Source of the DNA: an uncultured Alphaproteobacteria bacterium | GTDB lineage: Bacteria > Pseudomonadota > Alphaproteobacteria > Caulobacterales > Aquidulcibacteraceae | Direction of reading: 5' to 3' | DNA length: 64,000 nucleotides | NCBI GenBank assembly: GCA_902826245.1 | Contig: CADEEA010000007.1 | Location: 4,285 to 68,284, forward strand | Shown: one piece after another, positions 37,221-64,000 of the stretch | Layout of the letters: every line of letters starts with the position of its first letter | Position numbering within the stretch: the stretch's first letter is position 1 | The notes under the pieces: model-generated | Told to the model about the DNA's origin: nothing | Seen by the model: the letters and a program-made list of their open reading frames with translations, nothing else | Databases searched by the model: none | Program-made: the position numbers and the translations under genes

Positions 37221-38030
37221 TCACGGGGCGCGGTTCGCGGCGTCTTCTATTTGCACGCGGTAGCCTGAGCGCACGTGCGGGAAATAATCCCAAATCGCCA
37301 GATGCTGAGTGCAGCGATTGTCCCAGAACGCCACCGAATGCGGCTCCCAGCGGAAGCGCATGGCGAAATACGGATCTTCGCAATGCTGGTAGAGGAACTC
37401 CAGCAAGTGCCGGCTCTCTCTCGGAGAGACTTCATTGATGTGGCTGGTAAAGCCTCGATTGACAAAAATCACCTTGCGGCCAGTCACCGGGTGAACGCGG
37501 ATAACCGGATGCACAGATTTGGGATACTTGCCTTCCGGATCGAAACGGCCAAACGCAAGGATGCCGTCATGGGTGGCCGTCAAACCCTCGAGATAAGTCT
37601 TCATCCGGTCAGAGAGCGCATCATAGGCCGCGTACATGCTGGCGAAAATCGTGTCGCCGCCTTGTGGCGGCAGCGTGTGCAGATAGAGGATGCTGCCCAT
37701 TGGCGGCACTGCGGCGCACGACATATCCGTGTGCCATTCCTCGCCGGAGACATGCTTTGAGTTTTCGTCGGCGTGCAATTTGCGCACGTCGGGATAGTCC
37801 GGCATGCCTTTCAAAGCATGGCGCTGCAGCTTGCCGAAATATTGCCCCACCCGAGACAATGAACCGGGGTCGAGCCTCTGATCCCGGAAGAAGATCACTT
37901 GGTGATCGGCCAACGCTTGGTGCAGATCGTCGACAGCTGCATTGCTCAAAGGCTGGGTCAGATCGACACCGGAAATGACCGCCCCGATCCGCGGTGTGAT
38001 GGGGGAGGCCTTGATTGTGGCGTAGCTCAT
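37221..38030 (-). CDS. TauD/TfdA-family Fe(II)/2-oxoglutarate dioxygenase
   Basis: WHTD facial-triad motif, GGDTIFA and WDNRCTQH. Confidence 0.92.
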   Translation of the reverse strand: MSYATIKASPITPRIGAVISGVDLTQPLSNAAVDDLHQALADHQVIFFRDQRLDPGSLSRVGQYFGKLQRHALKGMPDYPDVRKLHADENSKHVSGEEWHTDMSCAAVPPMGSILYLHTLPPQGGDTIFASMYAAYDALSDRMKTYLEGLTATHDGILAFGRFDPEGKYPKSVHPVIRVHPVTGRKVIFVNRGFTSHINEVSPRESRHLLEFLYQHCEDPYFAMRFRWEPHSVAFWDNRCTQHLAIWDYFPHVRSGYRVQIEDAANRAP

Positions 38031-38083
38031 GGGCGCCTCTGCATGCGTGGAATTTTGACGGCTCGATGACTATAAGTTGCCGC

Positions 38084-38100
38084 AGATTGTCTGGCAATCT
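38084..38100. promoter_or_regulatory. Operator copy 1 of the TTGTCWGACAA motif
   Basis: AGATTGTCTGGCAATCT palindrome between the divergent TauD and quinone oxidoreductase genes. Confidence 0.65.
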
Positions 38101-38127
38101 AGCGAAGCTGGGCACGTGGAGCAGGAA

Positions 38128-39135
38128 ATGGCCGAATCGATGAGGGCAATACGCTTGGACGAAACCGGGCCGCCGGCGAATTTGCGCTGCATCGAGACCG
38201 ATCGCCCGGTCTTGGCGCCAGATGGTGTGCTGATCCGCGTCGCTTATGCCGGTATCATTTATGCCGACGCCGAGGCGCGGCGCGGCACTTATTACCGGAA
38301 AACCACCCTGCCCTGGTTTCCAGGTCGCGAAGCAGCCGGGATTGTTGCTGCTATTGGATCGGCCGTGACCGGGTTCAAGCCGGGCGATCGGGTGGCGGCC
38401 CTGGTCATGGGCGGAGGCTGCTACGCCGAATACGTGCAGGCGCGCACCGCCCCGCACCAGCTTCCCAGCGGCAGCGAAGGCGCGCCCTCTGACATCATTG
38501 CGTTGCCTGATGGGGTGAGCTTCACGCGGGCCTTGGTCTATCTCGTGAACTTCCGACTGGCGCACATTTTGTTTCATGCCTGGGCACGCACGCCGCCTCA
38601 TGCGCGCATCATGGTGCATGGAGCGGCGGGCGGCATGGGCGCCATGCTCCTGCAACTGGCGGCGCAACAGGGCTGCGAAACCATCGCGATGGTGCGCAAC
38701 GAGATGGAAGCGGACTTCTGCCGCCGCCTCGGCGCCGCACACGCGATTGACGCAAGCCAACACGATTATGTCGCGGCGATCGAGGCATTGGGCGGAGGCG
38801 TGCACTTCAGCTTCAACGGCGTCGGCGGCGACACCATTAATCGCGATCCGCTTCTGCTCGCGCCTTTCGGTGAGCTGATCTGCTACGGTTATGTCGCTGG
38901 CAAACAGCCGATCGACTTCTTCGCCCTCGACCGCACGCTGAGCATAAAGTCGTTCAACGCCGACAATTTCCTGAAGACGCCCCATTTCGCTGCCGCTACT
39001 GCTGCCATGCGTGAACAATTTCACCGTGCCGCGCTTCTCGACGCGGGCCGGATATTTCCGCTGCCGCAAGCTGCGGAGGCTCACGAGGCCTTAGAATCTG
39101 GTGACTTTCTTGGGAAGATCGTGCTTCAACCGTGA
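38128..39135 (+). CDS. NADPH:quinone oxidoreductase-like MDR protein (no Zn ligands)
   Basis: PGREAAG and VHGAAGGMG motifs; GKIVL C-terminus. Confidence 0.88.
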   Translation: MAESMRAIRLDETGPPANLRCIETDRPVLAPDGVLIRVAYAGIIYADAEARRGTYYRKTTLPWFPGREAAGIVAAIGSAVTGFKPGDRVAALVMGGGCYAEYVQARTAPHQLPSGSEGAPSDIIALPDGVSFTRALVYLVNFRLAHILFHAWARTPPHARIMVHGAAGGMGAMLLQLAAQQGCETIAMVRNEMEADFCRRLGAAHAIDASQHDYVAAIEALGGGVHFSFNGVGGDTINRDPLLLAPFGELICYGYVAGKQPIDFFALDRTLSIKSFNADNFLKTPHFAAATAAMREQFHRAALLDAGRIFPLPQAAEAHEALESGDFLGKIVLQP

Positions 39136-39175
39136 CCGCCGCGGACTTGACGCCGCCGGCCGCGAGCGCGATGAT

Positions 39176-39186
39176 TTGTCTGACAA
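39176..39186. promoter_or_regulatory. Operator copy 2 (perfect TTGTCTGACAA)
   Basis: Lies 13 bp upstream of the small HTH-like gene at 39200. Confidence 0.7.
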
Positions 39187-39199: not shown

Positions 39200-39478
39200 A
39201 TGTCCGATCTTCATGCCCGCTTGGCGCGGCAATCTCTGCGCCGACCACTCACACCCGACGAAGCGGGACTCGCTTTGGCGCTTGAGCAGATCTTTGCTGG
39301 CGGCCAGCACGACTTTGCAGGTGTCGCCAAAGCACTCGCTGACAGGGACGTGAAGCGCCCGTCCGGTGAAACAAGCGCTTGGACGCCGGAATCACTTGAA
39401 CAAGAGCTAAGACGCATCAACGCCGACTTGGATAAGGCCTACGAGACGCTCGACCTGATGCTAGCAGCAGGAGCGTGA
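39200..39478 (+). CDS. Recombinase-like helix-turn-helix domain small protein
   Basis: R.LT..E..LA.ALE.IF..G.HD...V...L...RPSG...WT pattern, recognised from Rieske-oxygenase-associated clusters; GTGA overlap with the SDR gene. Confidence 0.7.
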   Translation: MSDLHARLARQSLRRPLTPDEAGLALALEQIFAGGQHDFAGVAKALADRDVKRPSGETSAWTPESLEQELRRINADLDKAYETLDLMLAAGA

Positions 39479-40221
39479 TGCTCAAGGGGCGCACAATAGT
39501 TATCACCGGCGCCGCGCGCGGCGTAGGTTTGGCCGCCGCCAAAGCGTGCGCTCGCCATGGTGCGCGACTCGTCCTGGCTGACCTACTCATCGACCTCGGC
39601 AAGGCCGAAACCCAAAGCCTAGTCGAAGGCGGCGCCGAGGCCCGGTTCGTATCCATCGATTTAGACGCCCCCTCTTCGATTGAAGCGTTTGCGGCTGATA
39701 TCAAAGCGCACGAAGGTGGCGTCGACGGCTTAGTGAACAACGCCGCCATCGCTACCAATGTCGGCGGCGCGGGCTTTGAGGACATCGACCCAGCGCTCTG
39801 GGACAAGGTTATGCGCGTCAATGTACGCGGCACGTGGCTTGTCACACGCGCCCTTTCTCCGCTGTTCGGCAAGGACGCCCGCATCGTCAACATGGCGTCC
39901 GACACCGCGCTATGGGGACCGCAACGGCTCCTGGCCTATGTAGCGAGCAAAGGGGCGGTGATTTCCATGACCCGTTCACTGGCGCGCGAATTGGGGCCGC
40001 GCGGCATTGGCATTGTGGCGCTCGCGCCCGGGCTGATGCGCAACGAAGCCACCGAATACGTACCCGCCGAGCGCCACGCCCAAAACGAAAAGGGCCGCGC
40101 TGTACCCGGGCCGCAATTTCCCGAGGACATCGTCGACATAATCGCCTTTCTGCTGACGCCCGCAGCGCTGCCGCTAACCGGGCAAGTCATTCCCGTCGAC
40201 GCTGGCTTTGTGTTTGTTTAG
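39475..40221 (+). CDS. Short-chain dehydrogenase/reductase
   Basis: TGAARGVG, NNAA and YVASKG motifs. Confidence 0.93.
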   Translation: MMLKGRTIVITGAARGVGLAAAKACARHGARLVLADLLIDLGKAETQSLVEGGAEARFVSIDLDAPSSIEAFAADIKAHEGGVDGLVNNAAIATNVGGAGFEDIDPALWDKVMRVNVRGTWLVTRALSPLFGKDARIVNMASDTALWGPQRLLAYVASKGAVISMTRSLARELGPRGIGIVALAPGLMRNEATEYVPAERHAQNEKGRAVPGPQFPEDIVDIIAFLLTPAALPLTGQVIPVDAGFVFV

Positions 40222-40232: not shown

Positions 40233-41420
40233 ATGAGCTTACGCTGCCCCATCCCATTTTCGGACCTAGCCCCCATCAATGGGGCCCCCGCACCAACGCG
40301 CTTCTTGCCGCCTGCTGCGTACAATTCGGAGGAATTTCACGCCTTTGAACTCGCTTCGGTGTGGCGCAAGGAATGGATAGCGGTGGGCCGCTGTGAGGAA
40401 ATCGCCGCGCCTGGAGATTATTTCACTGTCAGCATCGGCGAGGACCCGCTCATCGTCATCCGCGGCGACGACCAGGCGATCCACGCCATGTCAGCGGTTT
40501 GCCGCCACCGCGGCATGCTGGTCGCTGACGGCGCAGGCCATTGCAAGGGCCGGTTCGTATGCCCCTATCACAATTGGACCTATGACCGCCGCGGTAACCT
40601 CGTCGGCGCGCCTGGCATGCATGATGCACCAGGCTTTAGGCGTGAAGAAAATGGACTCCCGGCGGTTCGAACCGAGATCTGGGAAGGCGTCATCTTCGTC
40701 AACTTCGATGCGGCCGCGCCGCCCTTGGCGCCGCGGCTGGCGTCACTAGCGCCGATTGTGCGCGATTGGCGGCTGGCGGAGTTGCAAAACGAAAGCGTGG
40801 TCGATCCAACTGCGAAAATGCACTTCGATTACGATTGGAATTGGAAGATCTACGCCGAAGGGCAGAGTGAGTGCTACCATTGCGATAAGCTGCACGGCGA
40901 TACGCCCAGCATGCATGGCATCGATTTCGCCAGCATGAACATGCTAGTGAACGAACCTGACAACGGCGCCTTCGCATTCAGCCTGCGCACTAAGGCGATC
41001 GATCACACGCTAAACCACCTCGGCAAAGCGGTGCTTCCGCCGGTGCCGACTCTTTCGGAAGAACAGCGCTGGCTTTCCTATTCCATCGTCATCGCACCCA
41101 ACATCTTCATGCAATTGATGTCGGACTGCGTGATCCTGCTTTGTTGGTTCCCCAAGCGCGCGCAATCCATGCGGATGAAGCGGTTCCGCATGTACCCACA
41201 ATCAACACTGCACCTACCAGATTTTCTAGCACAGCGCGCGCCCGAAAGAGTGGCGGCACGTTATTTCGTGTCGCAGGACGATGTCGCTTTCGAGAGCGTG
41301 CAACAGGGCTTGCGCTCACATTTCGCGCCGCGCGGCCCTATCGCCTCGGGAGAGCCGATCTTGAGCGGATTCAATCGTTGGCTAATTGATCGTTACCGCG
41401 CCATGGAGCGGCAAGCCTAA
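40233..41420 (+). CDS. Rieske oxygenase alpha subunit (choline-monooxygenase-like group)
   Basis: CRHRG...CPYHNW Rieske motif; ECYHCDKLH and QDDVAFE mononuclear Fe ligands. Confidence 0.9.
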   Translation: MSLRCPIPFSDLAPINGAPAPTRFLPPAAYNSEEFHAFELASVWRKEWIAVGRCEEIAAPGDYFTVSIGEDPLIVIRGDDQAIHAMSAVCRHRGMLVADGAGHCKGRFVCPYHNWTYDRRGNLVGAPGMHDAPGFRREENGLPAVRTEIWEGVIFVNFDAAAPPLAPRLASLAPIVRDWRLAELQNESVVDPTAKMHFDYDWNWKIYAEGQSECYHCDKLHGDTPSMHGIDFASMNMLVNEPDNGAFAFSLRTKAIDHTLNHLGKAVLPPVPTLSEEQRWLSYSIVIAPNIFMQLMSDCVILLCWFPKRAQSMRMKRFRMYPQSTLHLPDFLAQRAPERVAARYFVSQDDVAFESVQQGLRSHFAPRGPIASGEPILSGFNRWLIDRYRAMERQA

Positions 41421-41421
41421 A

Positions 41422-43014
41422 TCAATTGGCCCGCGGCGCCCAAATCCAATCGTAGCGGTCGTTGAAGCGGCGGCGCGGCGGCGCCGAACGCCAATTGGCG
41501 GCGTCGTTGACATCGCCCGAGCCGTCATAGCGCGCTACATTAGGATAGGCGTAAAGCGGACGCGTGCGCACGACCGCACCGTTCTCGCTTTGCGTGGCGA
41601 TGATTCCATCCGGCTCAGCGCCCCCTTCGACCCATCGCACCAAGTGCGGCAAGAAGTCGAACGTATTGGGGGCGTTGCCACCTCGACAATGATACATGCC
41701 CGGCACCATGAACACCCGGAACCAGTTGCGCACGCTATCGAGACCGCCCTGACTTTCGGTGATATTCGCATAATAGTCGAGCGTGGCGAGCGGGGATACG
41801 CCGGGATCGGCCCAGCCATGATAGATAATGAGCTTGCCGCCTCGGCGCTCAAACCCGCTTAGGTCCGGCGTGCCCCGCGGGGGCACCGGATCAAACATCG
41901 CCGCCGACGCTTCGGTCGCCGCGACATCGGTATCGAAATTGAAATCGCGATAATTGTAATCGGGACGAGGTTCGCTGAACGCCAGGAAGCGCAGCCAAGC
42001 TTCGGCAATCGAGCGTCGCCCTGCTCCATCCCACTGCAGTTCCGCTCCAAAGGGTGAGCCACCAATCGAAAGCGCTTGGCCGCGGCTATTGCGCGCGCCG
42101 GCATAAAGACGCCGTGCGGCCTCAACTTGCGCCGGTGACAAACAGGAATCGCGGGCCTGCCCGCGGGGGCAGGCGATCGTGCGCGGGTCGAAACGGCAAT
42201 AGCGCGGATCATCGACAATGCCGTCGCGGACTCCATCCAGTTGATCGCATGCGCGCATTACTGCGGTGGCGATCGTTCGCAACGCCGCTGGCGAAAACAC
42301 GGGTTGATTGTCTGCCGTCAACAGACTTTGCGCGTCCCAATTGTTAGCCAGCGGGCCCTGGCGTCCGGGAAATGCGGGGTCCCCGGCAATAATGCCGTCA
42401 AAATCCTCAGGGAAGAACTGTGCTTCACTCAGCCCCTCGCGCCCGCCCGTGGAGCAGCCGCGGAAATAGGAATAGGCCGCCTGCGCGCCGTAATAGCGCT
42501 CAATGATCGCTTTTGCCGCTAGCGCGACGACGTGCGTAGAGCGCCGGCCGAAATCGCGGCGAAGGGCCGGCTCGCTCGCCCACAGCGCATCTCGCCAGAA
42601 ATGGCCGACATGTCCCATATTGTGCGCCGCCACCGCAAAGCCGCGCGCCTGCGCGTCAGCACAGCCTTCTATGGGAACGTTGCCGCACAGTCCCCCGCAT
42701 CCGGTCTGGAAATAGCGGCCGTTCCATCGCGTCGGCAGACGCAACTCGAACTGAATCTGCGGCTGCACGACGCCGATTACGGCGCAATAGCCGTCTGCGG
42801 CGCCGCGCGCTGGCGTTGTCCGAGCCGAGATGATCGCTGTCGGCGCATCGGCAAGCCCGGAAAAGCTCTGCTGCTCAAGCGCCGCGCACTCAATTGCGCC
42901 GGCAAGGTTCGCGTCTGTTGCGGCCCGCGTTTGCGCCATTGCAGGTGCAAGTGGCCAGCCAAAAGCCGCACTGAAAGCAGCACAGATCAAAGCTCTGCCG
43001 AGCGCCCGCAGCAT
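41422..43014 (-). CDS. Secreted tannase/feruloyl esterase-family hydrolase
   Basis: Signal peptide, GCSTGGREG, HGWAD and PGMYHC (CS-D-HC motif). Confidence 0.92.
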   Translation of the reverse strand: MLRALGRALICAAFSAAFGWPLAPAMAQTRAATDANLAGAIECAALEQQSFSGLADAPTAIISARTTPARGAADGYCAVIGVVQPQIQFELRLPTRWNGRYFQTGCGGLCGNVPIEGCADAQARGFAVAAHNMGHVGHFWRDALWASEPALRRDFGRRSTHVVALAAKAIIERYYGAQAAYSYFRGCSTGGREGLSEAQFFPEDFDGIIAGDPAFPGRQGPLANNWDAQSLLTADNQPVFSPAALRTIATAVMRACDQLDGVRDGIVDDPRYCRFDPRTIACPRGQARDSCLSPAQVEAARRLYAGARNSRGQALSIGGSPFGAELQWDGAGRRSIAEAWLRFLAFSEPRPDYNYRDFNFDTDVAATEASAAMFDPVPPRGTPDLSGFERRGGKLIIYHGWADPGVSPLATLDYYANITESQGGLDSVRNWFRVFMVPGMYHCRGGNAPNTFDFLPHLVRWVEGGAEPDGIIATQSENGAVVRTRPLYAYPNVARYDGSGDVNDAANWRSAPPRRRFNDRYDWIWAPRAN

Positions 43015-43067: not shown

Positions 43068-45392
43068 CTAGAACTCGCTGGATAAGCGCACGCCTATGGT
43101 TCGTGGCCGTGGGGAGTAGACTCTCTGCCCATCTGGCGAGACATCAATCGCGTACTGGGCCTCTTCGTTTGTGACATTATTCACAAACAGACGCACGTCC
43201 CAATTCCCCTGCCGAAGGCCGCCAGCAATATCAACCACAACATAGGAATCCAATTCCACAAAATTGGGATCCGCTGAATTAAACGTCGTGTTCGATGAGC
43301 CACGATAGGACGCCGTCTCCTGCAAATAACCCTCAAGTGAACCGCTCAGATCAAACTCGTATTCCACGCGCTGCGATGCCGCCCATTCCGAGACGCGCGG
43401 AACGCGGTCGCCTTTGAGACCGGGCACGCCAGCCGACACCGGCAAATCCTCACTTAGGCTGGAGTCCGTGTATACCAAGCCGCCACTCAGCGTTAACCCT
43501 TCGACGGGATGCGTAGTGATCTGGAGTTCTGCGCCGTTCACATTGGTTTTGCCGGCGTTGATCGTGAAATCGAAGGCGCCGGACGCGTCAGTGGCGTTAA
43601 GCTGCTGGTCGGCCCAATCGATCCGATAGATCGAGACATCGATGAACGTGTTGCGGTTGAACAGATAAGATTTAGCCCCCAGTTCGTAAGACCACAAGCT
43701 GTCGGGGTCGTAGCTCGCCGGGATGGTGACCCCTGCGGAACCCGCCAGCAGTGTGGAATTATTCACTCCGCCCACGCGGAAACCCGAGGCGGCCCGTGCA
43801 TATAAGCTTAGATCGTCGCTCGGCTCCCAAAGCAGCGACCAATTATAGCTCACCTGCGATTCAGATCCGGTCGTCGTTCCTCGCGAATAAGGAACGGTGA
43901 CATCACCGAATGCGTAGCCGCATAAATTCGGCGGCCCGAAACCGCGATAGACATAGAAGGTTGAGCAGATCGGATCCTGAGCGAAGACGTCCTGCTGGGT
44001 AATGCCGGAATCTGTAATATCGGCGCTGTAGTAGCGCACGCCGATCGTGCCCGTGACCTGCTCGGTAAATTCGTAGTCTCCTTGCGCATAGAGCGCGTAT
44101 TGGTCGATATTGCGGAAATCCACCGTTGAAAACTCGACATTGGGTATCAAACCCGGCGTTGCGTGGCACGCAGCATAGGAAGTGCACGCCAACCTACCCG
44201 TCACGTCATCGGCAACCAGCGCATTGGTTTCCACACGAGTCTCGCTGTTCTCCTTGTAGTATCCTGCGACCAACTGGAAGGGTCCGTCGAAATCGGACGC
44301 GTAGCGAATTTCCGCCGTGCTGTTTTCGAAATCCTGGAAATTGCTCAGTGAGGTCAGGAAGGGCACGCCGAAGCTATTCGCGGTCGGCGTGGTGTCTTCG
44401 GGGCGATAATTACTCTGGGTGGTGTCAGAAATTGCTATCGTGAGTGTACCCGAGCCGAAGTCCGTCACACTTGTAAGTGAAAGGAGATCGTATTCGTCAG
44501 CGTAGGGCTCCACGGTTGGCGAAAGGCTGTTGTACGGGCCTGCTGCAAGGTGCCAATTTTGAGAACCGTCAACTGTGATTTCCTGATGGAGTGCGGCTGC
44601 CGTGAGGGTCCATGACTCCGTCGGGCGGAACGCCAACATAGCGCGAACGCCCTGTACACTCGCGTCGTTTACGTCATCGTACCGTGTAGTACCTGCTAGA
44701 CCCGCGTGTTGGTCAATGAAGCCACCGCCCTCCTCGACCCAGCCCACCGCACGAAAGGCAAGGCGATCACCAAGCGCGGCATTGATCATGCCATCGGCCA
44801 TGTAGAGTTCGTTGCCGCTGTCGATGGTGGCCCCGGACACGTTGATTCTGCCTTCGAAACCCTCGAAGTTCGGTTGTGCCGTGATGACGCGCAGGGTGCC
44901 GCTCATGGAGCCCGAACCGAAGAGAGTGCCCTGCGGCCCACGCAGTACTTCGACCCGCGCGAGATCGTGCAGCCGTATGCCAGGCTTGCCGTCGCCGCCG
45001 CCCTCGGTGCCCGATCCACCGGTCAAAGGTACTTCGTCGATGTACATCCCTACGGTAGAGCCAATGTCGGATTGAACGCCGCGGATAATGAATTGATTGA
45101 AGGCCGCACCGTAATTTTGAGCCGCGAACGTGGAGTCGATCTTGGTGATGTCCTGAAGCGAGGTGACAGCCAAATTTTCAAGTTGCTCGCCAGAAAATGA
45201 AGAAACCGCAAGCGGAATATCTACCAACGCCTGCTCACGCCGGGTCGCCGTAACGACAATTTCGTCGTCAGCGCCCGCCCCCGTTTGCGCCTGCGCCACG
45301 CCGACGCCACCAGAAAGCGCCAACATTCCTGCAGCTGCGCTGCCCGTAAGCACGCTTAGCCGCAACTGCTTCGACCATTTAGATTTCGTCAT
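43068..45392 (-). CDS. TonB-dependent receptor
   Basis: Signal peptide, DEIVVTATRR TonB box, RVEVLRGPQGTLFG plug motif, C-terminal Phe. Confidence 0.94.
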   Translation of the reverse strand: MTKSKWSKQLRLSVLTGSAAAGMLALSGGVGVAQAQTGAGADDEIVVTATRREQALVDIPLAVSSFSGEQLENLAVTSLQDITKIDSTFAAQNYGAAFNQFIIRGVQSDIGSTVGMYIDEVPLTGGSGTEGGGDGKPGIRLHDLARVEVLRGPQGTLFGSGSMSGTLRVITAQPNFEGFEGRINVSGATIDSGNELYMADGMINAALGDRLAFRAVGWVEEGGGFIDQHAGLAGTTRYDDVNDASVQGVRAMLAFRPTESWTLTAAALHQEITVDGSQNWHLAAGPYNSLSPTVEPYADEYDLLSLTSVTDFGSGTLTIAISDTTQSNYRPEDTTPTANSFGVPFLTSLSNFQDFENSTAEIRYASDFDGPFQLVAGYYKENSETRVETNALVADDVTGRLACTSYAACHATPGLIPNVEFSTVDFRNIDQYALYAQGDYEFTEQVTGTIGVRYYSADITDSGITQQDVFAQDPICSTFYVYRGFGPPNLCGYAFGDVTVPYSRGTTTGSESQVSYNWSLLWEPSDDLSLYARAASGFRVGGVNNSTLLAGSAGVTIPASYDPDSLWSYELGAKSYLFNRNTFIDVSIYRIDWADQQLNATDASGAFDFTINAGKTNVNGAELQITTHPVEGLTLSGGLVYTDSSLSEDLPVSAGVPGLKGDRVPRVSEWAASQRVEYEFDLSGSLEGYLQETASYRGSSNTTFNSADPNFVELDSYVVVDIAGGLRQGNWDVRLFVNNVTNEEAQYAIDVSPDGQRVYSPRPRTIGVRLSSEF

Positions 45393-45695: not shown

Positions 45696-45706
45696 TCGTC
45701 TGACAA
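45696..45706. promoter_or_regulatory. Operator copy 4 (TCGTCTGACAA)
   Basis: One mismatch to the consensus; in the AT-rich region upstream of the TonB receptor. Confidence 0.55.
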
Positions 45707-54668: not shown

Positions 54669-54729
54669 CGCCTCCTCCAGACATGGCTGATGCGCCAAAC
54701 ACTAATCGCTCGAACACGAAACACAAGGA

Positions 54730-56981: not shown

Positions 56982-57694
56982 ACGCGAGCACCCGCATGAA
57001 AACAGAGCGCCGGATGCAGCATTTGCGTTACCGCAATCGCGCGGCCCGCAGCGCAATCGGTCCACCACAGCGACAAGAGCGGCGCCCCTGGCGGCGCTTT
57101 CAGCAGCATCGCAAAACGCGGTTCCGCAGATATCGCCTCAACCCAACCATCCCTCATCGCCACGGGGGTCGCCGTCCAATCTGAAAGCGAGGAGGCAAAG
57201 CGCCGCCCGCTGGCAAGGGCATCAAGCGCCCCTGTAAATTGCGGATGCAGGTAGCGCTTCACCCCCCAACGCGGCGCATCGTTGGACACCTTGATGAAGA
57301 ATGGAATCGGGGCGTGGCTGCGCACTCCAAGCAATTCCGAAACCTGAGGCGGAGCTGGGGCGCAACCGGTGCGGACCAGACGCTGCGCTCGATCGGCGAG
57401 CGCAGAAGCCTCCCCCCAGGAACGCACTTTGCGAGCCGCCGGACGGCCCGCCCGTGCATCGCCGCGCACAAATGTTCCGCGCCCAACCTGGCGATCAATG
57501 AGGCCGTCCCTCTCCAAGGACTCCAGCGCCTGACGCACAGTGGCGCGACTTACTCCGTAGCGCAGGCGTAGTGTTTCCTCAGTCGGCACTTGATCCCCTG
57601 CCCTCAGCTCGCCATCGGCGATCTGCTCGCGCAAGATGGCCTCCATCTGTCGATAGAGACGCAAATCGCCCTGGCGGAGGGCCGCGCGCGGCAT
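56978..57694 (-). CDS. GntR-family regulator (HutC/UTRA-like C-terminus)
   Basis: PTEETLRLRYGVSRATVRQAL...GRGTFV wHTH; divergent C-terminal domain. Confidence 0.88.
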   Translation of the reverse strand: MPRAALRQGDLRLYRQMEAILREQIADGELRAGDQVPTEETLRLRYGVSRATVRQALESLERDGLIDRQVGRGTFVRGDARAGRPAARKVRSWGEASALADRAQRLVRTGCAPAPPQVSELLGVRSHAPIPFFIKVSNDAPRWGVKRYLHPQFTGALDALASGRRFASSLSDWTATPVAMRDGWVEAISAEPRFAMLLKAPPGAPLLSLWWTDCAAGRAIAVTQMLHPALCFHAGARV

Positions 57695-57703: not shown

Positions 57704-57732
57704 TTTACATTATGTACGGTTGACCGTACAAT
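57704..57732 (+). promoter_or_regulatory. Sigma70-like promoter with an embedded 18-bp palindromic operator
   Basis: TTTACA (57704-09), a 17-nt spacer, then TACAAT (57727-32). TGTACGGT-TG-ACCGTACA at 57713-57730. Confidence 0.75.
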
Positions 57733-57761: not shown

Positions 57762-59471
57762 ATGTCAGGCGCCGATCCCGCCAGTACGATTTATGGCAGC
57801 GATGTCGCCGCCGACCTGCTGCGCGCCTTCGGCGTCCGCTACCTCGCCATCAACCCCGGCGCCAGTTTCCGCGGCCTGCATGACAGCATTGTCAATCGGC
57901 TCGGCAACGCTGAGCCCAAGCTGGTGCTCACTTTGCATGAAGCCCAAGCCGTGGCGATCGCGCACGGATACGCGAAGGTCACCGGCGAGCCGATGGGTGT
58001 GGTGTTGCATGCCAATGTAGGCCTAATGAACGCGGTGATGGCGATTTACAACGCGTTCACTGATCGCGTGCCGATGCTGATTCTCGGCGCCACCGGCGCG
58101 GTGGATGCGGCACGCCGCCGCCCATGGATCGAATGGATTCACACAAGCCGCGATCAGGCGGCGCTGATCCGCCCATTCGTCAAATGGGATGACCAACCCG
58201 CCTCCGTCCCTGCCATGGTGGAATCCTTGTTGCGGGCCTGGAGCTTAACGCGCGCGTCGCCGCAAGCGCCGACCTATGTGTGCCTCGATGTCCCGCTGCA
58301 GGAAGATCCCTGCGCACACCCAGGAACGCCGAACGTCGCGAGGTTTGCGCCTCAAAGCGCCGCGGCAATCGCCGAAGCCGATCTCGTGCAAGCAGCGACG
58401 CTGCTGAAAGCGGCGCGCCGTCCGCTTCTGCTCGTTGGTCGTCACCAGCGAACGCAGGCGGCCTGGGATGCGCGCGTGCGTTTGGCCGAAGCACTCGGTG
58501 CGGCAGTCATATGCGACCAGAAAGTCGGCGTTGGATTTCCGAGCGATCATCCCTTGTTTGTCGCGGCGCCAGCGCAATATCCGGACAAACGCGCAGCTGG
58601 CGTCGTGAACGAGGCTGACCTTGTGTTGAGCCTCGATTGGCCGGACCTGAAAGGATTGCTTGCACTCCGGGCGGACAAAGGCGCCGGCCTGCCGACTGTC
58701 ATCGCTTCACCTGACGAGCGGCTGCACAATGGCTGGTCGCTCGATCATTTTCCCTTTCCGGAAGCGGATTTGCGCCTGCCTGTGGCCGCTGACGCTTTTG
58801 TGACGGCGATCTTGCTGCATCTGGGAACCGCGCGCGCAAGTGAATGGTCGATCCCGCCGAAGCCCGTTCACACGCTCCCAAGTAGCGGCCCAATCACGAT
58901 CCCAGCGCTCGTGGCCGCCTTCGATAAAGCCCGCGGCACGCGCAAGGTATGCATCACACGCCTCACCTTCGGCGCGCCCGATTCAATGGTCCGCTTCACC
59001 GGCCCACTTGATTGCATTGGCATGGACGGTGGCGGCGGCATTGGCTCAACGCCGGGAATTACGGTGGGCGCGGCCTTAGCGCTGAAGGGCTCAGGCCGTT
59101 TGCCGGTCGCCATTCTCGGCGACGGCGACCTGCTGATGGGCAGTCAGGCATTATGGACCGCGGCGGCGAAGAAATTGCCCTGCCTGTTTGTCGTCAACAA
59201 CAATTCCTCGTTCTATAATGACGTCGAACACCAGGAGACTGTCGCCAAACGGCGCGGCACGCCCGTTGAGAACAAGACAGTCGGCATGGCGATCACCGAC
59301 CCGCCGGTGAACATCACAGAACTTGCACACGCCCACGGCTGCGACGTTTTCGGCCCCGTTGCTCGCGTCGAGGATCTCGACGCTGTGTTGGAGCAAGCAT
59401 TCCGCGCGGCCGAATCTGGAGCAGCCGTACTGGTGGACGTCGTGACCTTGCCACCGGCGGCGCGTACCTGA
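57762..59471 (+). CDS. Thiamine-diphosphate-binding enzyme (benzoylformate decarboxylase/ALS superfamily)
   Basis: NPGASFRGLHDS, LHEAQAV and GDGDLLMG...NN ThDP motif. Confidence 0.9.
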   Translation: MSGADPASTIYGSDVAADLLRAFGVRYLAINPGASFRGLHDSIVNRLGNAEPKLVLTLHEAQAVAIAHGYAKVTGEPMGVVLHANVGLMNAVMAIYNAFTDRVPMLILGATGAVDAARRRPWIEWIHTSRDQAALIRPFVKWDDQPASVPAMVESLLRAWSLTRASPQAPTYVCLDVPLQEDPCAHPGTPNVARFAPQSAAAIAEADLVQAATLLKAARRPLLLVGRHQRTQAAWDARVRLAEALGAAVICDQKVGVGFPSDHPLFVAAPAQYPDKRAAGVVNEADLVLSLDWPDLKGLLALRADKGAGLPTVIASPDERLHNGWSLDHFPFPEADLRLPVAADAFVTAILLHLGTARASEWSIPPKPVHTLPSSGPITIPALVAAFDKARGTRKVCITRLTFGAPDSMVRFTGPLDCIGMDGGGGIGSTPGITVGAALALKGSGRLPVAILGDGDLLMGSQALWTAAAKKLPCLFVVNNNSSFYNDVEHQETVAKRRGTPVENKTVGMAITDPPVNITELAHAHGCDVFGPVARVEDLDAVLEQAFRAAESGAAVLVDVVTLPPAART

Positions 59472-59473: not shown

Positions 59474-60829
59474 CTACCGCTCAGCGCGCAACGCGCCTTC
59501 CAATGCTTGAGCAATAGCGAGGAGTTCGCGATCATGCCCCCCTAACGCCGCCACCATCAGCCCCACCGGCGCCTCTCCACCCCTATGGACCGGCAACGAG
59601 ATGGAACACCCATCGATCATATTGATGACACTCGGATTGCGCAGCGCCAAGAGATTGATGCGCCCATAATCGTCATCGCCGGCAACATCTGTGAGGCGAG
59701 GTGGGGTAATGGGCGTGGTTGGCGCCAGCATCGCGTCATAACCGGCCAAAGCGTCCGTGACATCAGCGATAAGTTGCCGACGCTGAGATAGCAATTCAAT
59801 ATAGTCAACGGCGCTTTGGCTCGCCCCTCGTTTGATCCGCACGGCAACACGTGGATCGTAATCAGGCTCGTGCTCGGCCAACATATGGCGATGCCAGGCA
59901 TAACTCTCCGCTGAAGCGAAGCCGCCTTTGCTGTTGATGGCGGCGAGGCGCTCAATCGGCGCGAGCACAATGCTCTCCACTTTAGCGCCAGCCGCCTCAA
60001 GCAAGCCCACCGCACGCTCGTGAGCATCGGCAACCTCAGGCACAACGCCATCGTGAAACACGTTGAGCACTGACGCGAGGCGCAGACCACGCAGATCCTT
60101 GCGCGCGATGTCTGGATCGGCCTCGCCAGCAAGGATAGCATCTAAGGTTGCGACGCAGTCTACGCTGCGAGCGATCGGACCAACAGAATCAAGCGTAGTT
60201 GAAAGTGGCACGGCCCCCTCGCGCGGGACGCGCTTGGAGGTCGGCTTGAAGCCTACCAGACCGCACCACGCCGCCGGAATCCGGCATGAACCGCCCGTAT
60301 CGGTGCCGAGGGAGCCATGCGCCATCTCGTCAGCGACAGCCGCCGCGCCGCCCGATGTCGAACCGCCGGCCAAATGTCGTTCATCCCGGCGCCAAGGGCT
60401 GAGCGGCGTGCCGTAATGAGGATTCAAGCCCAACCCGGAGAACGCGAACTCGGTCATGTTGCTGCGGCCGATCAGGACAAACCCGGCCTTGCGCAAACGT
60501 GCAACCGCCGGCGCGTCGTGCAGAACCGGGCCGTTGTCGAGCACGCGTGAGCCAGCGCGCGTGACTTGGCCAGCAATATCGAACAGGTCCTTGATCGCAA
60601 TGGGGATGCCGGCAAACGGTGACGGCGCCCGATTTTCGGCACGCAATGCATCGGTCGCGTCAGCTGCGGCGCGCGCACCATCCTTGTCCACCGAGACAAA
60701 GGCGACACCGCCCTGCCCGCCGGGATCATCGATCTTCCCAAGGCACGCTTCCAGCAAGGCGCGCGCGCTGGTCTTGCCTGATGCAAGGTCGGCCGCCAGA
60801 GCAGCTAAAGTTGGGGTCTTCGAAGTCAC
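59474..60829 (-). CDS. Amidase-signature family enzyme
   Basis: IAIKDLFD, GGSTSGGA and GTDTGGSCRIPA; GTG start overlapping the cupin stop. Confidence 0.93.
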   Translation of the reverse strand: MTSKTPTLAALAADLASGKTSARALLEACLGKIDDPGGQGGVAFVSVDKDGARAAADATDALRAENRAPSPFAGIPIAIKDLFDIAGQVTRAGSRVLDNGPVLHDAPAVARLRKAGFVLIGRSNMTEFAFSGLGLNPHYGTPLSPWRRDERHLAGGSTSGGAAAVADEMAHGSLGTDTGGSCRIPAAWCGLVGFKPTSKRVPREGAVPLSTTLDSVGPIARSVDCVATLDAILAGEADPDIARKDLRGLRLASVLNVFHDGVVPEVADAHERAVGLLEAAGAKVESIVLAPIERLAAINSKGGFASAESYAWHRHMLAEHEPDYDPRVAVRIKRGASQSAVDYIELLSQRRQLIADVTDALAGYDAMLAPTTPITPPRLTDVAGDDDYGRINLLALRNPSVINMIDGCSISLPVHRGGEAPVGLMVAALGGHDRELLAIAQALEGALRAER

Positions 60830-61245
60830 GCCGGGTCGTAGTAATGAATTTCAAGCAACAGCGCGCCGCCAACGGACTTGAACGGCCCATGATAAACACC
60901 GGGCGGACGCACTGCATAAGTTGCGCCCTTGAAGTTCTCGCCGCCTTCGCCGTTGGCGTCATTGCCGACAGTGAGGTCGCCTGAGATCAAGAACACCTCT
61001 TCCCAATATTCATGCACGAACGGTTTCGTCGTCATGAATCCAGGCTCCATGCGCAGGAGGCGCGTGCGGCTGCCGCGCCTGTTCACCTCATCGAGGCTGC
61101 CTGACAAAACTTTCTCCGCCGCGAGCGCATCCGGCGCGTAACCGTCGGGCAGCCGCCAGCCGGATGGAAAGCCATTGCGCACGGTCCACCCTGGCGCTCC
61201 CAGATCAATGGAGCGAAACTCGTCGTGGATTTTGTTCACGGCCAT
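60826..61245 (-). CDS. Cupin-domain protein
   Basis: HEYWEEVFLISGDL and RPPGVYHGPF motifs. Confidence 0.85.
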   Translation of the reverse strand: MAVNKIHDEFRSIDLGAPGWTVRNGFPSGWRLPDGYAPDALAAEKVLSGSLDEVNRRGSRTRLLRMEPGFMTTKPFVHEYWEEVFLISGDLTVGNDANGEGGENFKGATYAVRPPGVYHGPFKSVGGALLLEIHYYDPA

Positions 61246-61256
61246 GGCGGCCTCCT

Positions 61257-62186
61257 TCAGGTCCAAAGATCGCGGTACCGTTCGGCGACGATGTCGCCGT
61301 AGCCGGGGTCGCCGGCGAGTATGCCAACGTCCCGCGAAAACGCCTTCATGCCTTCGACAAAGTCGATACCAATACGCAAATCATAGTATGGCACATCGCG
61401 GCGAATAAGTTCGCTGATCAATCCCGCTTCGCGCGGAGGGAAACGCTTATTTCCCACTTGCTTGGCTAAGGACGGATCATTTCGCAGGGCCACGTGCGCG
61501 CGGCGAATGGCGCGCACCGCGGCAGCAGCGGTCTCCGGTTCGCGCGCAATCAACTCATCGGTCGCGGCGATGGCGGCCATTGTGTAATTGAACGCAGCAC
61601 TCGGCCCGTCGCCGCGACGTACATCGAGCACCACAGCGCCGGCCCCTTCGCTAACAGCCACTTCCGCGCCCATGCCGTTCGCCCAGAAGCCGTCAATTTT
61701 GCCCTCGGCCAACGCGCGAGCTGCGGTCACGCCGAAATTGACGACTTGCCCGGGCTCTGGCTTGGCGCCGGGCACGGGTGCGATCTGCACGCCGTCGCGC
61801 TCGACATCGATGCCGCTCTCCAACAACAGGCGCCGCAACCCCATCTCCACCCACGGCGCCGCGCCTATGCGTTTGCCTTTGACGATCGAAAGATCGCCGC
61901 GCTTGGGCCCGAGATCGGCGCGCATCACCAAGAACCAGTACATGCCCTGGCCCTGCGCGCAGAGCAGCTTTACCCCGCGCCACTCGGGAAATGCCGACAC
62001 CGCCGAATGAGCAGAGCCAGCCACGAAATCGACCGCGCCGTCGCGCATGGCGCGATAGGCGGCATCGACCGGGAAAATCAGTTCAAGCGAAACATCAAGC
62101 CCTTCCTCGGCAAAACAACCGAGATCGACGGCAGCGACGGCCGGAAAATATGAATTCGAGATCAGGTCTGGAACCGCGATCTTCAC
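61257..62186 (-). CDS. NMT1/THI5-like binding-protein-fold protein lacking a signal peptide
   Basis: G.F.EEGLDV.L, DLSIVKGKRIG and type II PBP pattern. GTG start 8 nt after the DUF2848 stop. Confidence 0.8.
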   Translation of the reverse strand: MKIAVPDLISNSYFPAVAAVDLGCFAEEGLDVSLELIFPVDAAYRAMRDGAVDFVAGSAHSAVSAFPEWRGVKLLCAQGQGMYWFLVMRADLGPKRGDLSIVKGKRIGAAPWVEMGLRRLLLESGIDVERDGVQIAPVPGAKPEPGQVVNFGVTAARALAEGKIDGFWANGMGAEVAVSEGAGAVVLDVRRGDGPSAAFNYTMAAIAATDELIAREPETAAAAVRAIRRAHVALRNDPSLAKQVGNKRFPPREAGLISELIRRDVPYYDLRIGIDFVEGMKAFSRDVGILAGDPGYGDIVAERYRDLWT

Positions 62187-62194
62187 AAACTCAC

Positions 62195-62872
62195 CTATCC
62201 GAGAATTGGCAGCTCAACCACGTCATAGCCATGCTTAATGGCGCGGCCGAGCACCGGGTCGGCAAGTTCGAAGGAAAAGCGTGGCGAGGGGCGAATGCCG
62301 CCGATCGCCGCCAGCGTACCGCAGAACATCAGCGTTCCGTCCTGCAGCCCCCCCGTCCGGAAGCGCTCCATCAGATCTTCTGGCGCGCGCATCGCCGTTA
62401 CCGGCCCGTCCTGATAAAGCGCGTCGCCGGCGGCCCAAGAGCGCAAACGAAGCTGGTCCCAGTGCGCGCTCACTTCTTCCCAAGGCCACAACTCACCCGC
62501 GACCGGCTTTTCGCACATCTGTTTCGAGACGGTGACATTGTAGGTCTCAACTTTGCGGTCTGTGTGGTCGGAGCCGACGCCGACAAATAGGCGCCCTTGA
62601 TGGCGCACAAGCACGAACTCCACTTCGCCGCTGGATTCACCGCCTGCGGCTTCGATGGCGCCTGCCGTGGTGAGCCTGCTTGCGGCGACGCGATAGAAGA
62701 TCGGAGTCGATTTCGGCCGCGCCACGCCGAGTTCTTCCAACTCGCGAATGTGCTTTTCCAAAGCCGCCTGGTCGCGCCCCGTCCAACCGGCGATGACCGC
62801 GTCGTTAATCGCGATAGTTTCCGGCCGTGGACCGCTGCGCTCCTGGATTGTGAAGCTCAAACTCACGCTCAT
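62195..62872 (-). CDS. DUF2848-family protein (FAH-like)
   Basis: IAGWTGRD...HIRELEELGV, SSGEVE and GSDHTDR motifs. Confidence 0.9.
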   Translation of the reverse strand: MSVSLSFTIQERSGPRPETIAINDAVIAGWTGRDQAALEKHIRELEELGVARPKSTPIFYRVAASRLTTAGAIEAAGGESSGEVEFVLVRHQGRLFVGVGSDHTDRKVETYNVTVSKQMCEKPVAGELWPWEEVSAHWDQLRLRSWAAGDALYQDGPVTAMRAPEDLMERFRTGGLQDGTLMFCGTLAAIGGIRPSPRFSFELADPVLGRAIKHGYDVVELPILG

Positions 62873-62882
62873 CGCGACCCTC

Positions 62883-63701
62883 TCATGCGGCGGCGTCGAG
62901 GCGCATGACGCCCATGCCAGTCGCCCAACCGTGCACTGCCTCGTAGGCAAGCACTTCGCCCTTGAAGTTACCCAACGCTCCAGCCAGCGCGATCCAAGTA
63001 AGCAACTCTATCGTGCCTGCCCCGGCCTTGCCGAGCTGAGCAACAGAATATGATTTTAGAACCGCGCCGTCGCCGCGGACCATTTGATCCAGAAAACGGC
63101 GATCGAACTCGCTATCGATGTGGCCATGACCGCGCTCGCCTGGATCGTGCGACATGCCGCCGGTGGCGATAAGGCCTATGCGCTTGCCAGAGGCGCGCGC
63201 GACATCGCCAATGATCTGGCCAAACGCGTGGCAACGCGCTGGCGAGGGCTGCGGCGGCGCCAACGTGTTGAAAAACACCGGCACAACAGGAATTCGAAAA
63301 TCCGGCGTCAAGAATGAAAGCGGCACCATGGTGCCGTGATCAAGCAGCAACTCATGAGAAAATGACGGCTCAATGCCGGCGCCGTAGGCGGTGTCGATGA
63401 TTGTTTGCGCCAGAGCGGGATCACCCGGGATCGCCGTCTTCTCCATCTTCATCCACGGTTCGATTGGCCCGTGCGCGGCCTCCCCGCGCCCAACACAAAA
63501 CGCGCTCACATGGTCAAAGAAGAAATTGGCCCAATGCTCGCAAGTCAGCAGCACCAGCACGTCCGGACGCGCAGTTTCGAGCGCCCCCTTTAGCTGATTG
63601 ACGCCAACAGCCAGCGCGTCACGCTGACCAGGCGTGGCCCGCTCACTCCACGCGACCCAGCCCGGCGCGTGCCCAAGGGCTGCTGCGAACGCGATACTCA
63701 T
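62883..63701 (-). CDS. Class III extradiol ring-cleavage dioxygenase, catalytic (LigB/CarBb-like) subunit
   Basis: GHAP, RPDVLVLLTCEH, LDHG, GGMSH and E..W residues at the LigB metal and catalytic positions. Confidence 0.9.
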   Translation of the reverse strand: MSIAFAAALGHAPGWVAWSERATPGQRDALAVGVNQLKGALETARPDVLVLLTCEHWANFFFDHVSAFCVGRGEAAHGPIEPWMKMEKTAIPGDPALAQTIIDTAYGAGIEPSFSHELLLDHGTMVPLSFLTPDFRIPVVPVFFNTLAPPQPSPARCHAFGQIIGDVARASGKRIGLIATGGMSHDPGERGHGHIDSEFDRRFLDQMVRGDGAVLKSYSVAQLGKAGAGTIELLTWIALAGALGNFKGEVLAYEAVHGWATGMGVMRLDAAA

Positions 63702-63955
63702 GGCCCCTCCTGACGGATCGCGGTGAGATAATCCGGCTCGGCAACACCGTGGATGATCGAGAACGGCCGCAGCAACAAGCCATGTACGCCCATGCGGTAA
63801 AGGGCCCCGTAGTCGCGCGCGGCGAGCGCCTTGCCCTCGGTGTCCTCCAGCTTCCACTCAGCGCACAGCGCATCGGGCGTCGCCACGAAGCGCTCGCGTA
63901 CGGCGGCGTTACGATTGATCTCCCGGATCAACTTTTGCAGCTGGTAGACGCTCAT
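63698..63955 (-). CDS. Class III extradiol dioxygenase small (LigA/CarBa-like) subunit
   Basis: 85 aa, Y...KLI..., E..AL...D..ALY..GVH.LL pattern; ATGA overlap with the large subunit. Confidence 0.85.
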   Translation of the reverse strand: MSVYQLQKLIREINRNAAVRERFVATPDALCAEWKLEDTEGKALAARDYGALYRMGVHGLLLRPFSIIHGVAEPDYLTAIRQEGP

Positions 63956-64000
63956 GGCGCCTCCGCGAACACATCGTCGACCCAATGCAAAGCGGCCACC
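63952..64000 (-). CDS. 3' end of an upstream gene (VAALHWVDDVFAEAP*), function unknown
   Basis: Open frame to the window edge; its TGA overlaps the ATG of the small dioxygenase subunit. Confidence 0.5.
   Translation of the reverse strand, partial: VAALHWVDDVFAEAP

Follow-up and report, generated by a model that had tools for sequence, protein, structure and literature searches.

The Escherichia coli pathway for 3-phenylpropionate and cinnamate (Hca/Mhp: HcaEFCD, HcaB, MhpB, MhpC, MhpD, MhpE) is the comparison system for the locus described here; the LigAB protocatechuate 4,5-cleavage pathway of Sphingobium sp. SYK-6 and the mandelamide/mandelate pathway of Pseudomonas putida (MdlY, MdlC, MdlD) are further points of reference. 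Within the nicotinate regulon of Aspergillus nidulans, the cyclic imidase HxnM works together with the amidase HxnN, and the relatives of HxnM include PuuE and HpPgdA (PMC9304392). The GntR/FadR-type repressor DipR of Alcaligenes faecalis JQ135 acts at approximately six promoters of the multi-unit dipicolinate (dip) cluster (PMC11472048). The locus under study is a catabolic island in the draft genome of an uncultured alphaproteobacterium of the Aquidulcibacteraceae (GCA_902826245.1; 3.2 Mb, 104 contigs, 93.6% complete). The 64,000-nucleotide stretch that was analysed, hereafter the window, covers positions 4285-68284 of contig CADEEA010000007.1 (C7), and the island begins 37.2 kb into it. Its genes constitute a real and coherent catabolic unit, predicted to be a single regulon, of which no step has been characterised; this presumably repressor-controlled regulon is probably dedicated to the degradation of one kind of nitrogen-containing aromatic carboxylic acid. 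Genes were called from a listing of open reading frames and from Pfam scans, and model scores are given against NCBIfam cut-offs; coordinates without a contig or locus prefix are those of the window.

Predicted operator, regulator and co-travelling genes

A search for the 11-bp palindrome TTGTCWGACAA, allowing at most one mismatch, returned five sites in the window versus 0.46 expected. The whole genome holds 19 such sites, and seven of these fall within 36 kb of C7 (at C7:42371-72982), all of them intergenic and at gene starts, a concentration with a binomial probability of approximately 1e-9. Perfect copies in the window are TTGTCTGACAA (39176..39186), 19 nt upstream of the HTH_62 gene, and TTGTCAGACAA (48382..48392) in the divergent promoter region of an MFS transporter and a Rieske oxygenase gene; one mismatch each is found in TTGTCTGGCAA (38087..38097), between the genes for a TauD-family enzyme and an alcohol dehydrogenase-type protein (Zn-ADH), in TCGTCTGACAA (45696..45706), upstream of the TonB receptor gene, and in TTGTCTGACAT (54730..54740), 37 nt upstream of the gene for a luciferase-like flavin monooxygenase (LLM). 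Past the window, one copy lies at C7:70580 between a DHDPS-like gene and the divergently transcribed gntR-FCD gene, and another between an aldehyde dehydrogenase and an SDR gene; the eighth island site, a perfect one, is located on contig C47, 65 nt upstream of a second gene for the alpha subunit of a ring-hydroxylating dioxygenase (RHO). The regulator itself is encoded just beyond the window end, at approximately C7:70687-71463, and has an N-terminal GntR winged helix-turn-helix and a C-terminal FCD domain (PF00392 and PF07729, L001:4274-5464). TTGTCWGACAA, including the site at the regulator's own divergent promoter, conforms to the FadR-subfamily consensus TNGTNNNACNA that is quoted in PMC11472048. 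The island is predicted, from sequence, to be a FadR-subfamily GntR regulon with an operator at no fewer than eight transcription units. The remaining genome-wide matches (C8:67542 upstream of rimM; others on C2, C4, C6, C19, C32 and C37) lie inside or beside unrelated genes and were set aside as chance occurrences. Separately, a one-mismatch copy on C1 (TTGTCAAACAA, C1:124579) overlaps the start of an open reading frame (C1:123522-124607, minus strand) whose N-terminus resembles 4-hydroxyphenylpyruvate dioxygenase; the overlap may be due to chance or may indicate a connection with the catabolism of tyrosine.

Most of the gene set recurs in a different bacterial class. A 32-kb contig of a Steroidobacteraceae metagenome-assembled genome (G041:C93) carries 21-22 orthologues of island genes, 40-86% identical and in shuffled order: SDR4 (86%), RHO alpha (77%) and RHO beta (68%), SDR1 (74%), the DHDPS-like (73%), OCD-family (71%) and CMD-family (56%) proteins, aldehyde dehydrogenase 2 (66%), the NMT1-like protein (65%), the PuuE-like hydrolase (64%), TauD, the thiamine diphosphate (ThDP)-dependent enzyme and DUF2848 (61% each), LigA (61%) and LigB (54%), amidase 1 (59%), the VanA-type Rieske oxygenase (56%), the epimerase-family protein (55%), the cupin (54%), Zn-ADH (50%), HTH_62 (46%) and the TonB receptor (40%). 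The contig additionally encodes an MFS carrier (35-38% identical to MFS_b and MFS_c), a GntR-FCD regulator (56%), a ferredoxin, a second GntR-FCD protein and a second RHO pair. The genes for the PuuE-like hydrolase, amidase 1, LigAB and DUF2848, which are 10 kb apart in the window, are direct neighbours on this contig. In the related locus L034, the PuuE-like and amidase 1 genes are convergent neighbours, and in the window they belong to adjacent units; the order of the ferredoxin and PuuE-like genes is common to the window and L034.

Three further clusters (L086, L088 and L090) retain the gene order GntR-FCD / DHDPS-OCD-CMD-LigAB-DUF2848-NMT1-cupin-amidase as well as the window's pair of MFS_1 and MFS_3 transporter genes; their oxalate/formate-type MFS protein is 55-60% identical to that of the window. 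L086 and L090 also keep the arrangement ThDP / GntR-amidase-hydrolase, and L086 the LLM-RHO order, with identities of 78% for LLM, 74% for the alpha/beta hydrolase, 75% for amidase 1 (64% in L090) and 54% for the HutC-type GntR regulator. Including G041, the ThDP enzyme is 61-73% identical across G041, L086 and L090, and the NMT1-like protein 65-72% identical across G041, L086, L088 and L090. In L089, HTH_62, VanA_C-type Rieske (60%) and SDR1 (71%) genes are joined to GntR-FCD / DHDPS-OCD-CMD-LigAB, together with reductase and flavodoxin genes. Operator copies at promoters accompany these genes, with six distinct sites on G041:C93, four in L086, three in L088 and six each in L089 and L090; a further LigAB locus, L087, has no operator, and the remaining DUF2848 loci contain four sites in 1.42 Mb. 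Orthologues of the GntR-FCD regulator in five related clusters are 52-72% identical. The joint travel of gene set, operator and regulator is strong comparative evidence for what is predicted to be a single functional unit. For the tannase-family hydrolase, the GbcA-like Rieske protein, MFS_a, MFS_c and SDR3, no orthologue is present in any of the related loci that were compared, and these genes therefore look like strain-specific additions. LigB homologues occur in more than 120 clusters at 57-75% identity, nearly all of them metagenomic.

Several smaller gene associations were observed alongside the regulon. A scan of 185,579 species genomes seeded with DUF2848 yielded 80 loci (L003-L082), with hosts that include Bradyrhizobium, Stellaceae, Xanthobacter and Burkholderia; DUF2848 is accompanied by the cupin in 39 of them, by an adjacent amidase 2 in 38 and by the NMT1-like protein in nine, mostly without LigAB. 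DUF2848, the small cupin and the PRK07056-type amidase form a widespread module, to which an NMT1-like protein lacking a signal peptide, or else a ThDP enzyme, is sometimes added; cultured carriers include Nitratireductor aestuarii CGMCC 1.15320, Xanthobacter aminoxidans and Bradyrhizobium spp.; since it is usually found without LigAB, this module appears to lead a life of its own outside the island. HTH_62, VanA_C-type Rieske and SDR1 genes form a compact, uninterrupted run in two unrelated genomes (L034:664-2955 and L089:1672-3823), which argues for a functional triad; in the window, the VanA_C-type Rieske gene (48378-49478) is 9 kb from HTH_62 and SDR1 (39200-40221), and a GbcA-like Rieske gene takes its slot. 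In the single case of L087 (L087:8525-10819), the same LigAB subfamily (61% identity) stands beside an Ldh_2-family gene where the OCD-family gene would be expected. Ldh_2 is the family of the DpkA-type pyrroline/piperideine-2-carboxylate reductases, and its gene could be a non-orthologous replacement of OCD that hints at a cyclic imino-acid intermediate.

Extent and accessory status of the island

The first 36 kb of the window are occupied by housekeeping genes (spoT, rpoZ, slt, hrpB, tgt, pepA, lptFG, lptD-surA-pdxA-ksgA); among them, at 23233-25245, is a second TonB-dependent receptor gene with no operator copy nearby. The island sets in immediately after lptD-surA-pdxA-ksgA, with the TauD gene as its first gene. 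The ksgA-TauD junction is also present in an independent Logan assembly (L091); the left border is therefore real, and the junction is no binning artefact. At the other side, the window end cuts through the catabolic block, which continues for another 9.4 kb to the end of the contig at C7:77706. This continuation encodes CMD, OCD/mu-crystallin and DHDPS-like proteins, the GntR-FCD regulator, two aldehyde dehydrogenases, three SDRs and an epimerase-family protein. A long minus-strand operon that starts beyond the window comprises, in this order, the DHDPS-like, OCD/mu-crystallin, CMD, LigA, LigB, DUF2848, NMT1-like, cupin and amidase 2 genes; beyond the divergent GntR-FCD gene follow a succinate-semialdehyde dehydrogenase (SSADH)-like aldehyde dehydrogenase, an SDR, aldehyde dehydrogenase 2, an SDR, the epimerase-family gene and an SDR that is cut at the contig end. 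Contig C47 holds a second RHO alpha/beta pair and the N-terminal piece of an SDR, with unrelated genes thereafter; its RHO subunits share 67% and 54% identity with those encoded ahead of the SDR4 and epimerase genes in a related cluster. The island would therefore consist of C7:41505-77706 plus approximately 2.5 kb of C47, altogether about 39 kb and 40 genes. At the expected island end, C47:505-1023 is a single open reading frame in which the N-terminal part of an SDR is fused to a C-terminal GreA/GreB domain; it either marks the real right junction, where the SDR is truncated, or stems from a join in the assembly of this metagenome-assembled genome. Of the interval 37221-64000 that the initial annotation had assigned to the island, the left border is corroborated by the L091 junction, and the right end has to be moved outward onto the remainder of C7 and C47.

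In three genomes of the same genus, the place after ksgA is taken not by the island but by orthologues of C8:56275-65141 of the present genome. DUF2848 was found in none of 40 relatives (24 genomes of the same genus and 16 of the same order), PF11010 (DUF2848) in none of 14 control genomes, and a LigB orthologue (E <= 1e-70) in none of 400 genomes sampled across the phylum. The island has a G+C content of 60.9%, versus 64.1% for the remaining contig; the window contains no tRNA gene, and no integrase or transposase was seen among the Pfam-scanned genes. By these signatures the block is an accessory island that appears to have been acquired horizontally. Its designation as a catabolic island is borne out: it is accessory, slightly lower in G+C content, and rich in uptake genes, oxygenases, amide hydrolases and a ring-cleavage enzyme.

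Enzymes, proposed pathway and alternatives

Every gene family proposed in the initial annotation was recovered by Pfam in the position proposed for it, in an inventory that was incomplete: genes for Zn-ADH, HTH_62, an SDR, a ferredoxin of 78 aa, a HutC-type GntR regulator, a cupin and an NMT1-like protein are also present. No island enzyme reaches an NCBIfam equivalog cut-off, and the only match above any cut-off is to the generic PRK07056 amidase subfamily; searches of the PDB with ten of the proteins returned only remote relatives, and none for DUF2848. The previous statement that the combination is not recognised as a described pathway holds for those pathways that could be tested, with no equivalog-level enzyme in the island and a different operator in the dip regulon. 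A lead pointing to phenazine-1-carboxylate (PcaR) gained no support. No publication combining OCD, an extradiol dioxygenase, an amidase and DHDPS was found, and the term "DUF2848" is not mentioned in a literature corpus of approximately 8.4 million papers.

The substrate would enter through the TonB-dependent outer-membrane receptor (43068..45392, minus strand; plug and barrel domains) and then through MFS carriers, for which the candidates are an EntS-like MFS_3 transporter (45762..46988, minus strand; PF05977), an oxalate/formate-monocarboxylate-type transporter (46992..48260, minus strand; PF07690) and a third MFS transporter (49514..50740, plus strand; PF07690). The benzenoid ring would be dihydroxylated by Rieske enzymes, with the small ferredoxin as electron donor, and rearomatised by SDRs. 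The RHO alpha subunit (52329..53576, minus strand; PF00355 and PF00848) has HcaE as its best PDB relative (8k0a, 186 bits), and the beta subunit (51865..52332, minus strand; PF00866) is nearest to HcaF models. Both belong to a unit that is headed by LLM (53580..54698, minus strand; PF00296) and continues through RHO, the single-cluster [3Fe-4S]/[4Fe-4S] ferredoxin (51619..51855, minus strand; 78 aa, PF13459 and PF13370) and the PuuE-like gene. LLM was considered as a core ring-opening enzyme and rejected for lack of conservation in G041: the best homologue there shows only 29% identity and is located elsewhere. SDR1 (39478..40221, plus strand; PF13561) is a candidate dihydrodiol or alcohol dehydrogenase and directly follows the small HTH_62 protein (39200..39478, plus strand; PF20552). 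The VanA_C (phthalate-family) type Rieske oxygenase (48378..49478, plus strand; PF00355 and PF19112), whose true start is probably near 48432, has SxtT, a putative phthalate dioxygenase and DdmC as its best PDB relatives. The GbcA-like Rieske large subunit (40233..41420, plus strand; PF00355 and PF00848; GbcA model 125 versus a cut-off of 670) and the tannase/feruloyl-esterase-family hydrolase (41422..43014, minus strand; PF07519, 379 bits), which is predicted to be secreted and has an N-terminus that reads as a signal peptide ending AMA-Q, would be local additions to the pathway. The left end of the island is completed by a TauD/TfdA-family 2-oxoglutarate dioxygenase (37221..38030, minus strand; PF02668, 223 bits; taurine dioxygenase model 256, below the cut-off of 313) and by Zn-ADH, a PIG3-type quinone oxidoreductase and candidate ene- or keto-reductase (38128..39135, plus strand; PF08240 and PF00107) that is also called in L091.

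Ring opening would be the task of the two-subunit extradiol dioxygenase formed by LigA (63698..63985, minus strand; PF07746) and the catalytic subunit LigB (62883..63701, minus strand; PF02900). The LigB residues that align with His61, His195 and Glu242 of the SYK-6 enzyme (1b4u_B) are conserved, the first His being judged from the N-terminal HAPG motif only; the best PDB scores are to MhpB (8k04; 84 bits), LigB (1b4u_B; 77 bits) and gallate dioxygenase (68 bits). On this basis LigA and LigB are assigned to the LigAB-type class III extradiol dioxygenases with a separate LigA subunit, an assignment predicted from conserved residues and similarity scores. Carbazole CarBaBb or aminophenol-type cleavage was rejected as the closest kind, since LigB scores only 24 bits to the aminophenol dioxygenase AmnB versus 84 to MhpB. 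The fission product would then be trimmed by DUF2848, the CMD-family decarboxylase (3' end in the window at 63952..64000, minus strand), the alpha/beta hydrolase and the DHDPS-like class I aldolase, to yield pyruvate and an aldehyde; the latter would be oxidised by the succinate-semialdehyde-type and other aldehyde dehydrogenases. DUF2848 (62195..62872, minus strand; PF11010, 272 bits) models as a FAH-fold enzyme: its predicted structure (pLDDT 92.8) is matched by Foldseek to FAHD1, fumarylpyruvate hydrolase and HpcE with TM values of 0.6-0.67, E 1e-8 and probability 1.0, and E83, E85 and D102, an E-x-E...D set, are invariant across 39 sequences. The alpha/beta hydrolase (54753..55604, minus strand; PF12697) resembles meta-cleavage-product hydrolases, with weak matches to HsaD and BphD models; the DHDPS-like protein is very divergent, and the SSADH-like aldehyde dehydrogenase scores 560 bits versus a cut-off of 646. 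A 2-oxo-acid side chain would be shortened by the benzoylformate decarboxylase-like ThDP enzyme (approximately 57762..59471, plus strand; TPP_enzyme N, M and C domains), which is nearest to benzoylformate decarboxylase (best PDB relative 4q9d, 123 bits) and scores 164 on the benzoylformate decarboxylase model, with a cut-off of 493.

Nitrogen would be released as ammonia by the PuuE-like hydrolase together with the two amidase-signature enzymes, and the OCD-family protein would act as an imino-acid dehydrogenase on an imine or amino-acid intermediate. The PuuE-like member of the polysaccharide-deacetylase family (50737..51615, minus strand; PF01522; PuuE model 132 versus 425) is a candidate cyclic amide/imide hydrolase with PDB matches to 3s6o, 1z7a, the PuuE allantoinase 3cl6 and HpPgdA (3qbu). 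Amidase 1 (55617..approximately 56993, minus strand; PF01425) belongs to the amidase-signature family; amidase 2 (59474..60829, minus strand), the terminal gene of the long operon, is the PRK07056-subfamily member (NF005460, 653 bits, above the cut-off of 447). The OCD-family protein resembles pyrroline/piperideine-2-carboxylate reductases and alanine dehydrogenase. Between DUF2848 and amidase 2 lie the genes for the NMT1/THI5-like protein without signal peptide (61257..62186, minus strand; PF09084) and the small cupin (60826..61266, minus strand; weak Cupin_7 match). The GntR-FCD protein would repress all units until a pathway metabolite is present.

The pairing of a PuuE-like enzyme with an amidase, as in fungal imide and lactam opening, means that the nitrogen could either be part of a fused lactam or imide ring or belong to a side-chain amide; the fused position is slightly favoured, given that the RHO operon includes the PuuE-like gene as a conserved member. 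The leading guess for the substrate is a bicyclic lactam or heterocyclic acid of the quinolone, oxindole or kynurenate type, and an aryl-C2/C3 acid amide is the second choice; an N-heteroaromatic substrate is plausible. A more specific version of the leading guess is rather unlikely to hold in full: a new pathway for a widespread bicyclic N-heterocyclic acid (kynurenate, quinaldate or a 2-quinolone/oxindole carboxylate), in which the benzo ring would be removed in an Hca/Mhp-like manner, the lactam or imide opened by the PuuE-like enzyme and ammonia released by the amidases, with DUF2848, the signal-less NMT1-like protein, the cupin and HTH_62 each catalysing or assisting an unprecedented step.

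If the nitrogen is instead exocyclic, the substrate would be an aryl-C2/C3 acid amide or amino acid of the mandelamide, arylglycine or phenylpropionamide/hydroxycinnamoyl-amide type, with amidase, OCD-type dehydrogenase, ThDP decarboxylase and aldehyde dehydrogenase forming an upper route to Hca/Mhp-like ring cleavage. This explanation is possible, if doubtful. The triad of amidase, benzoylformate decarboxylase-like ThDP enzyme and aldehyde dehydrogenase mirrors the mandelamide/mandelate route; the closest relatives of known structure for the enzymes that attack the ring, HcaE/HcaF for the RHO subunits and MhpB for LigB, serve a carbocyclic carboxyalkyl-catechol route and not an aminophenol or pyridine route, consistent with the distance between LigB and the aminophenol dioxygenases; and a tannase/feruloyl-esterase-family enzyme is encoded in the island. 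An exocyclic nitrogen, however, leaves unexplained both the conserved PuuE-like cyclic-amide hydrolase in the RHO operon and the co-transcription of the OCD, CMD and DHDPS-like genes with LigAB, and all the similarities invoked are remote (25-35% identity).

The initial annotation had proposed a multi-substrate funnel; in this explanation the island would be a patchwork of independent operons that channel unrelated N-aromatics (aryl esters, pyridines, betaines) into a common lower pathway. The multiplicity of uptake systems and of Rieske oxygenases (four, of three types) is consistent with it, as are the tannase, GbcA-like Rieske, MFS_a and MFS_c genes without orthologue in related clusters, the second, HutC-type regulator, and the varying content of the related clusters, with L089 lacking DUF2848, cupin and amidase genes within 10 kb. 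Yet one operator stands at eight or more promoters and is conserved across genomes, the 21-22 orthologues are found together on one contig in another class, and PuuE, amidase 1, LigAB and DUF2848, scattered in the window, are immediate neighbours in G041. The shared FadR-type operator and GntR-FCD regulator and the joint travel of most of the genes argue for a single pathway rather than a loose funnel, which is distinctly unlikely. Recycling or catabolism of a catecholamide siderophore, with receptor, esterase and amidases freeing dihydroxybenzoyl units for LigAB cleavage, would make use of the TonB receptor, the EntS-like MFS_3 conserved beside the cluster, the secreted esterase, the two amidases and the MhpB-like dioxygenase, but is most improbable: the GntR-FCD operator is of the carbon-catabolism type and no iron regulator was seen, the EntS model scores 94 bits versus a cut-off of 324, and the four Rieske systems, LLM, the ThDP enzyme and the OCD/DHDPS pair would have no role.

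As a caveat, several points weigh against the preferred reading, a single regulon for one kind of N-containing aromatic acid. Catalytic roles are assigned at the family level only, since no equivalog cut-off is reached, and the order of the pathway steps is one that we infer. The core varies between lineages, in that the G041 contig lacks LLM, the alpha/beta hydrolase and amidase 2. The right border depends on joining C7 to C47 through homology with L034, the genome being a draft of 104 contigs and 93.6% completeness. The HutC-type GntR regulator (56978..57694, minus strand; PF00392 and a weak UTRA match) has a palindrome of its own, TGTACGGT-TG-ACCGTACA (57713..57730), in the 67-bp gap between its gene and the ThDP gene, and hence at least one unit is predicted to be under separate, additional local control. 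No ferredoxin reductase that could serve the four Rieske systems was detected in the island. Redox partners observed in related clusters are a plant-type Fer2 ferredoxin encoded after the ThDP gene (L086:14215-14529 and L090:14275-14592) and, at L089:4621-6377, a Pyr_redox_2 reductase with a flavodoxin; none of these occurs in the window's island.

With a regulator, an operator and approximately 40 genes, the island represents a testable regulon that recurs in soil and water metagenomes and is nearly absent from cultured reference genomes. For DUF2848, a modelled FAH-fold enzyme that accompanies an amidase and a cupin in Bradyrhizobium, Xanthobacter, Burkholderia and other hosts, it offers the first functional context; context is gained also for the HTH_62-Rieske-SDR triad. 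The identity of the GntR-FCD effector would name the substrate, and could add a missing route of N-aromatic turnover.

Comparison with described pathways

The island shares with the E. coli Hca/Mhp pathway a two-subunit Rieske dioxygenase with ferredoxin, an SDR, a LigB-superfamily extradiol dioxygenase, an alpha/beta hydrolase, a FAH-fold enzyme and an aldolase. In contrast to Hca/Mhp, all scores remain below equivalog level (HcaE model 210 versus 830, HcaF 60 versus 230, MhpB models at most 113 versus 291-549), the island dioxygenase has a separate LigA subunit, and the aldolase is DHDPS-like instead of MhpE-like; the two amidases and the PuuE-like, OCD-family, CMD-family, ThDP, LLM and TauD proteins have no Hca/Mhp counterpart. 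The LigAB pathway of Sphingobium sp. SYK-6 resembles the island in its LigA and LigB subunits, with conserved Fe ligands and catalytic His, and in a lower route to pyruvate through an aldolase, which is presumed for the island; it differs in that LigB scores only 77 bits to 1b4u_B and that amide-hydrolysing enzymes are encoded inside the island operon, and no LigC, LigI, LigJ or LigK homologues were recognised in the island. The mandelamide/mandelate pathway of Pseudomonas putida has in common with the island an amidase-signature hydrolase, a benzoylformate decarboxylase-like ThDP enzyme and an aldehyde dehydrogenase; unlike that pathway, the island has neither a mandelate racemase nor an FMN-dependent dehydrogenase.

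In regulatory terms, the dip regulon resembles the island, with the same architecture in a cluster for an N-aromatic dicarboxylate; it is set apart by the DipR operator GWATAC, versus TTGTCWGACAA in the island, and by its hosts, such as Alcaligenes, Bordetella and Cupriavidus (PMC11472048). The Aspergillus nicotinate route, unlike the island, proceeds without oxygenolytic ring cleavage and without Rieske enzymes; its hxn regulon does include, as the island does, a 2-oxoglutarate dioxygenase, an ene-reductase-type enzyme and SDRs (PMC9304392). HxnM and HxnN find their likeness in the island's PuuE/HpPgdA-related hydrolase and amidase-signature enzyme, a likeness that runs via the shared relatives 3cl6 and 3qbu; the logic of the fungal pair is hydrolytic opening of a lactam or imide, followed by release of ammonia from the half-amide (PMC9304392).

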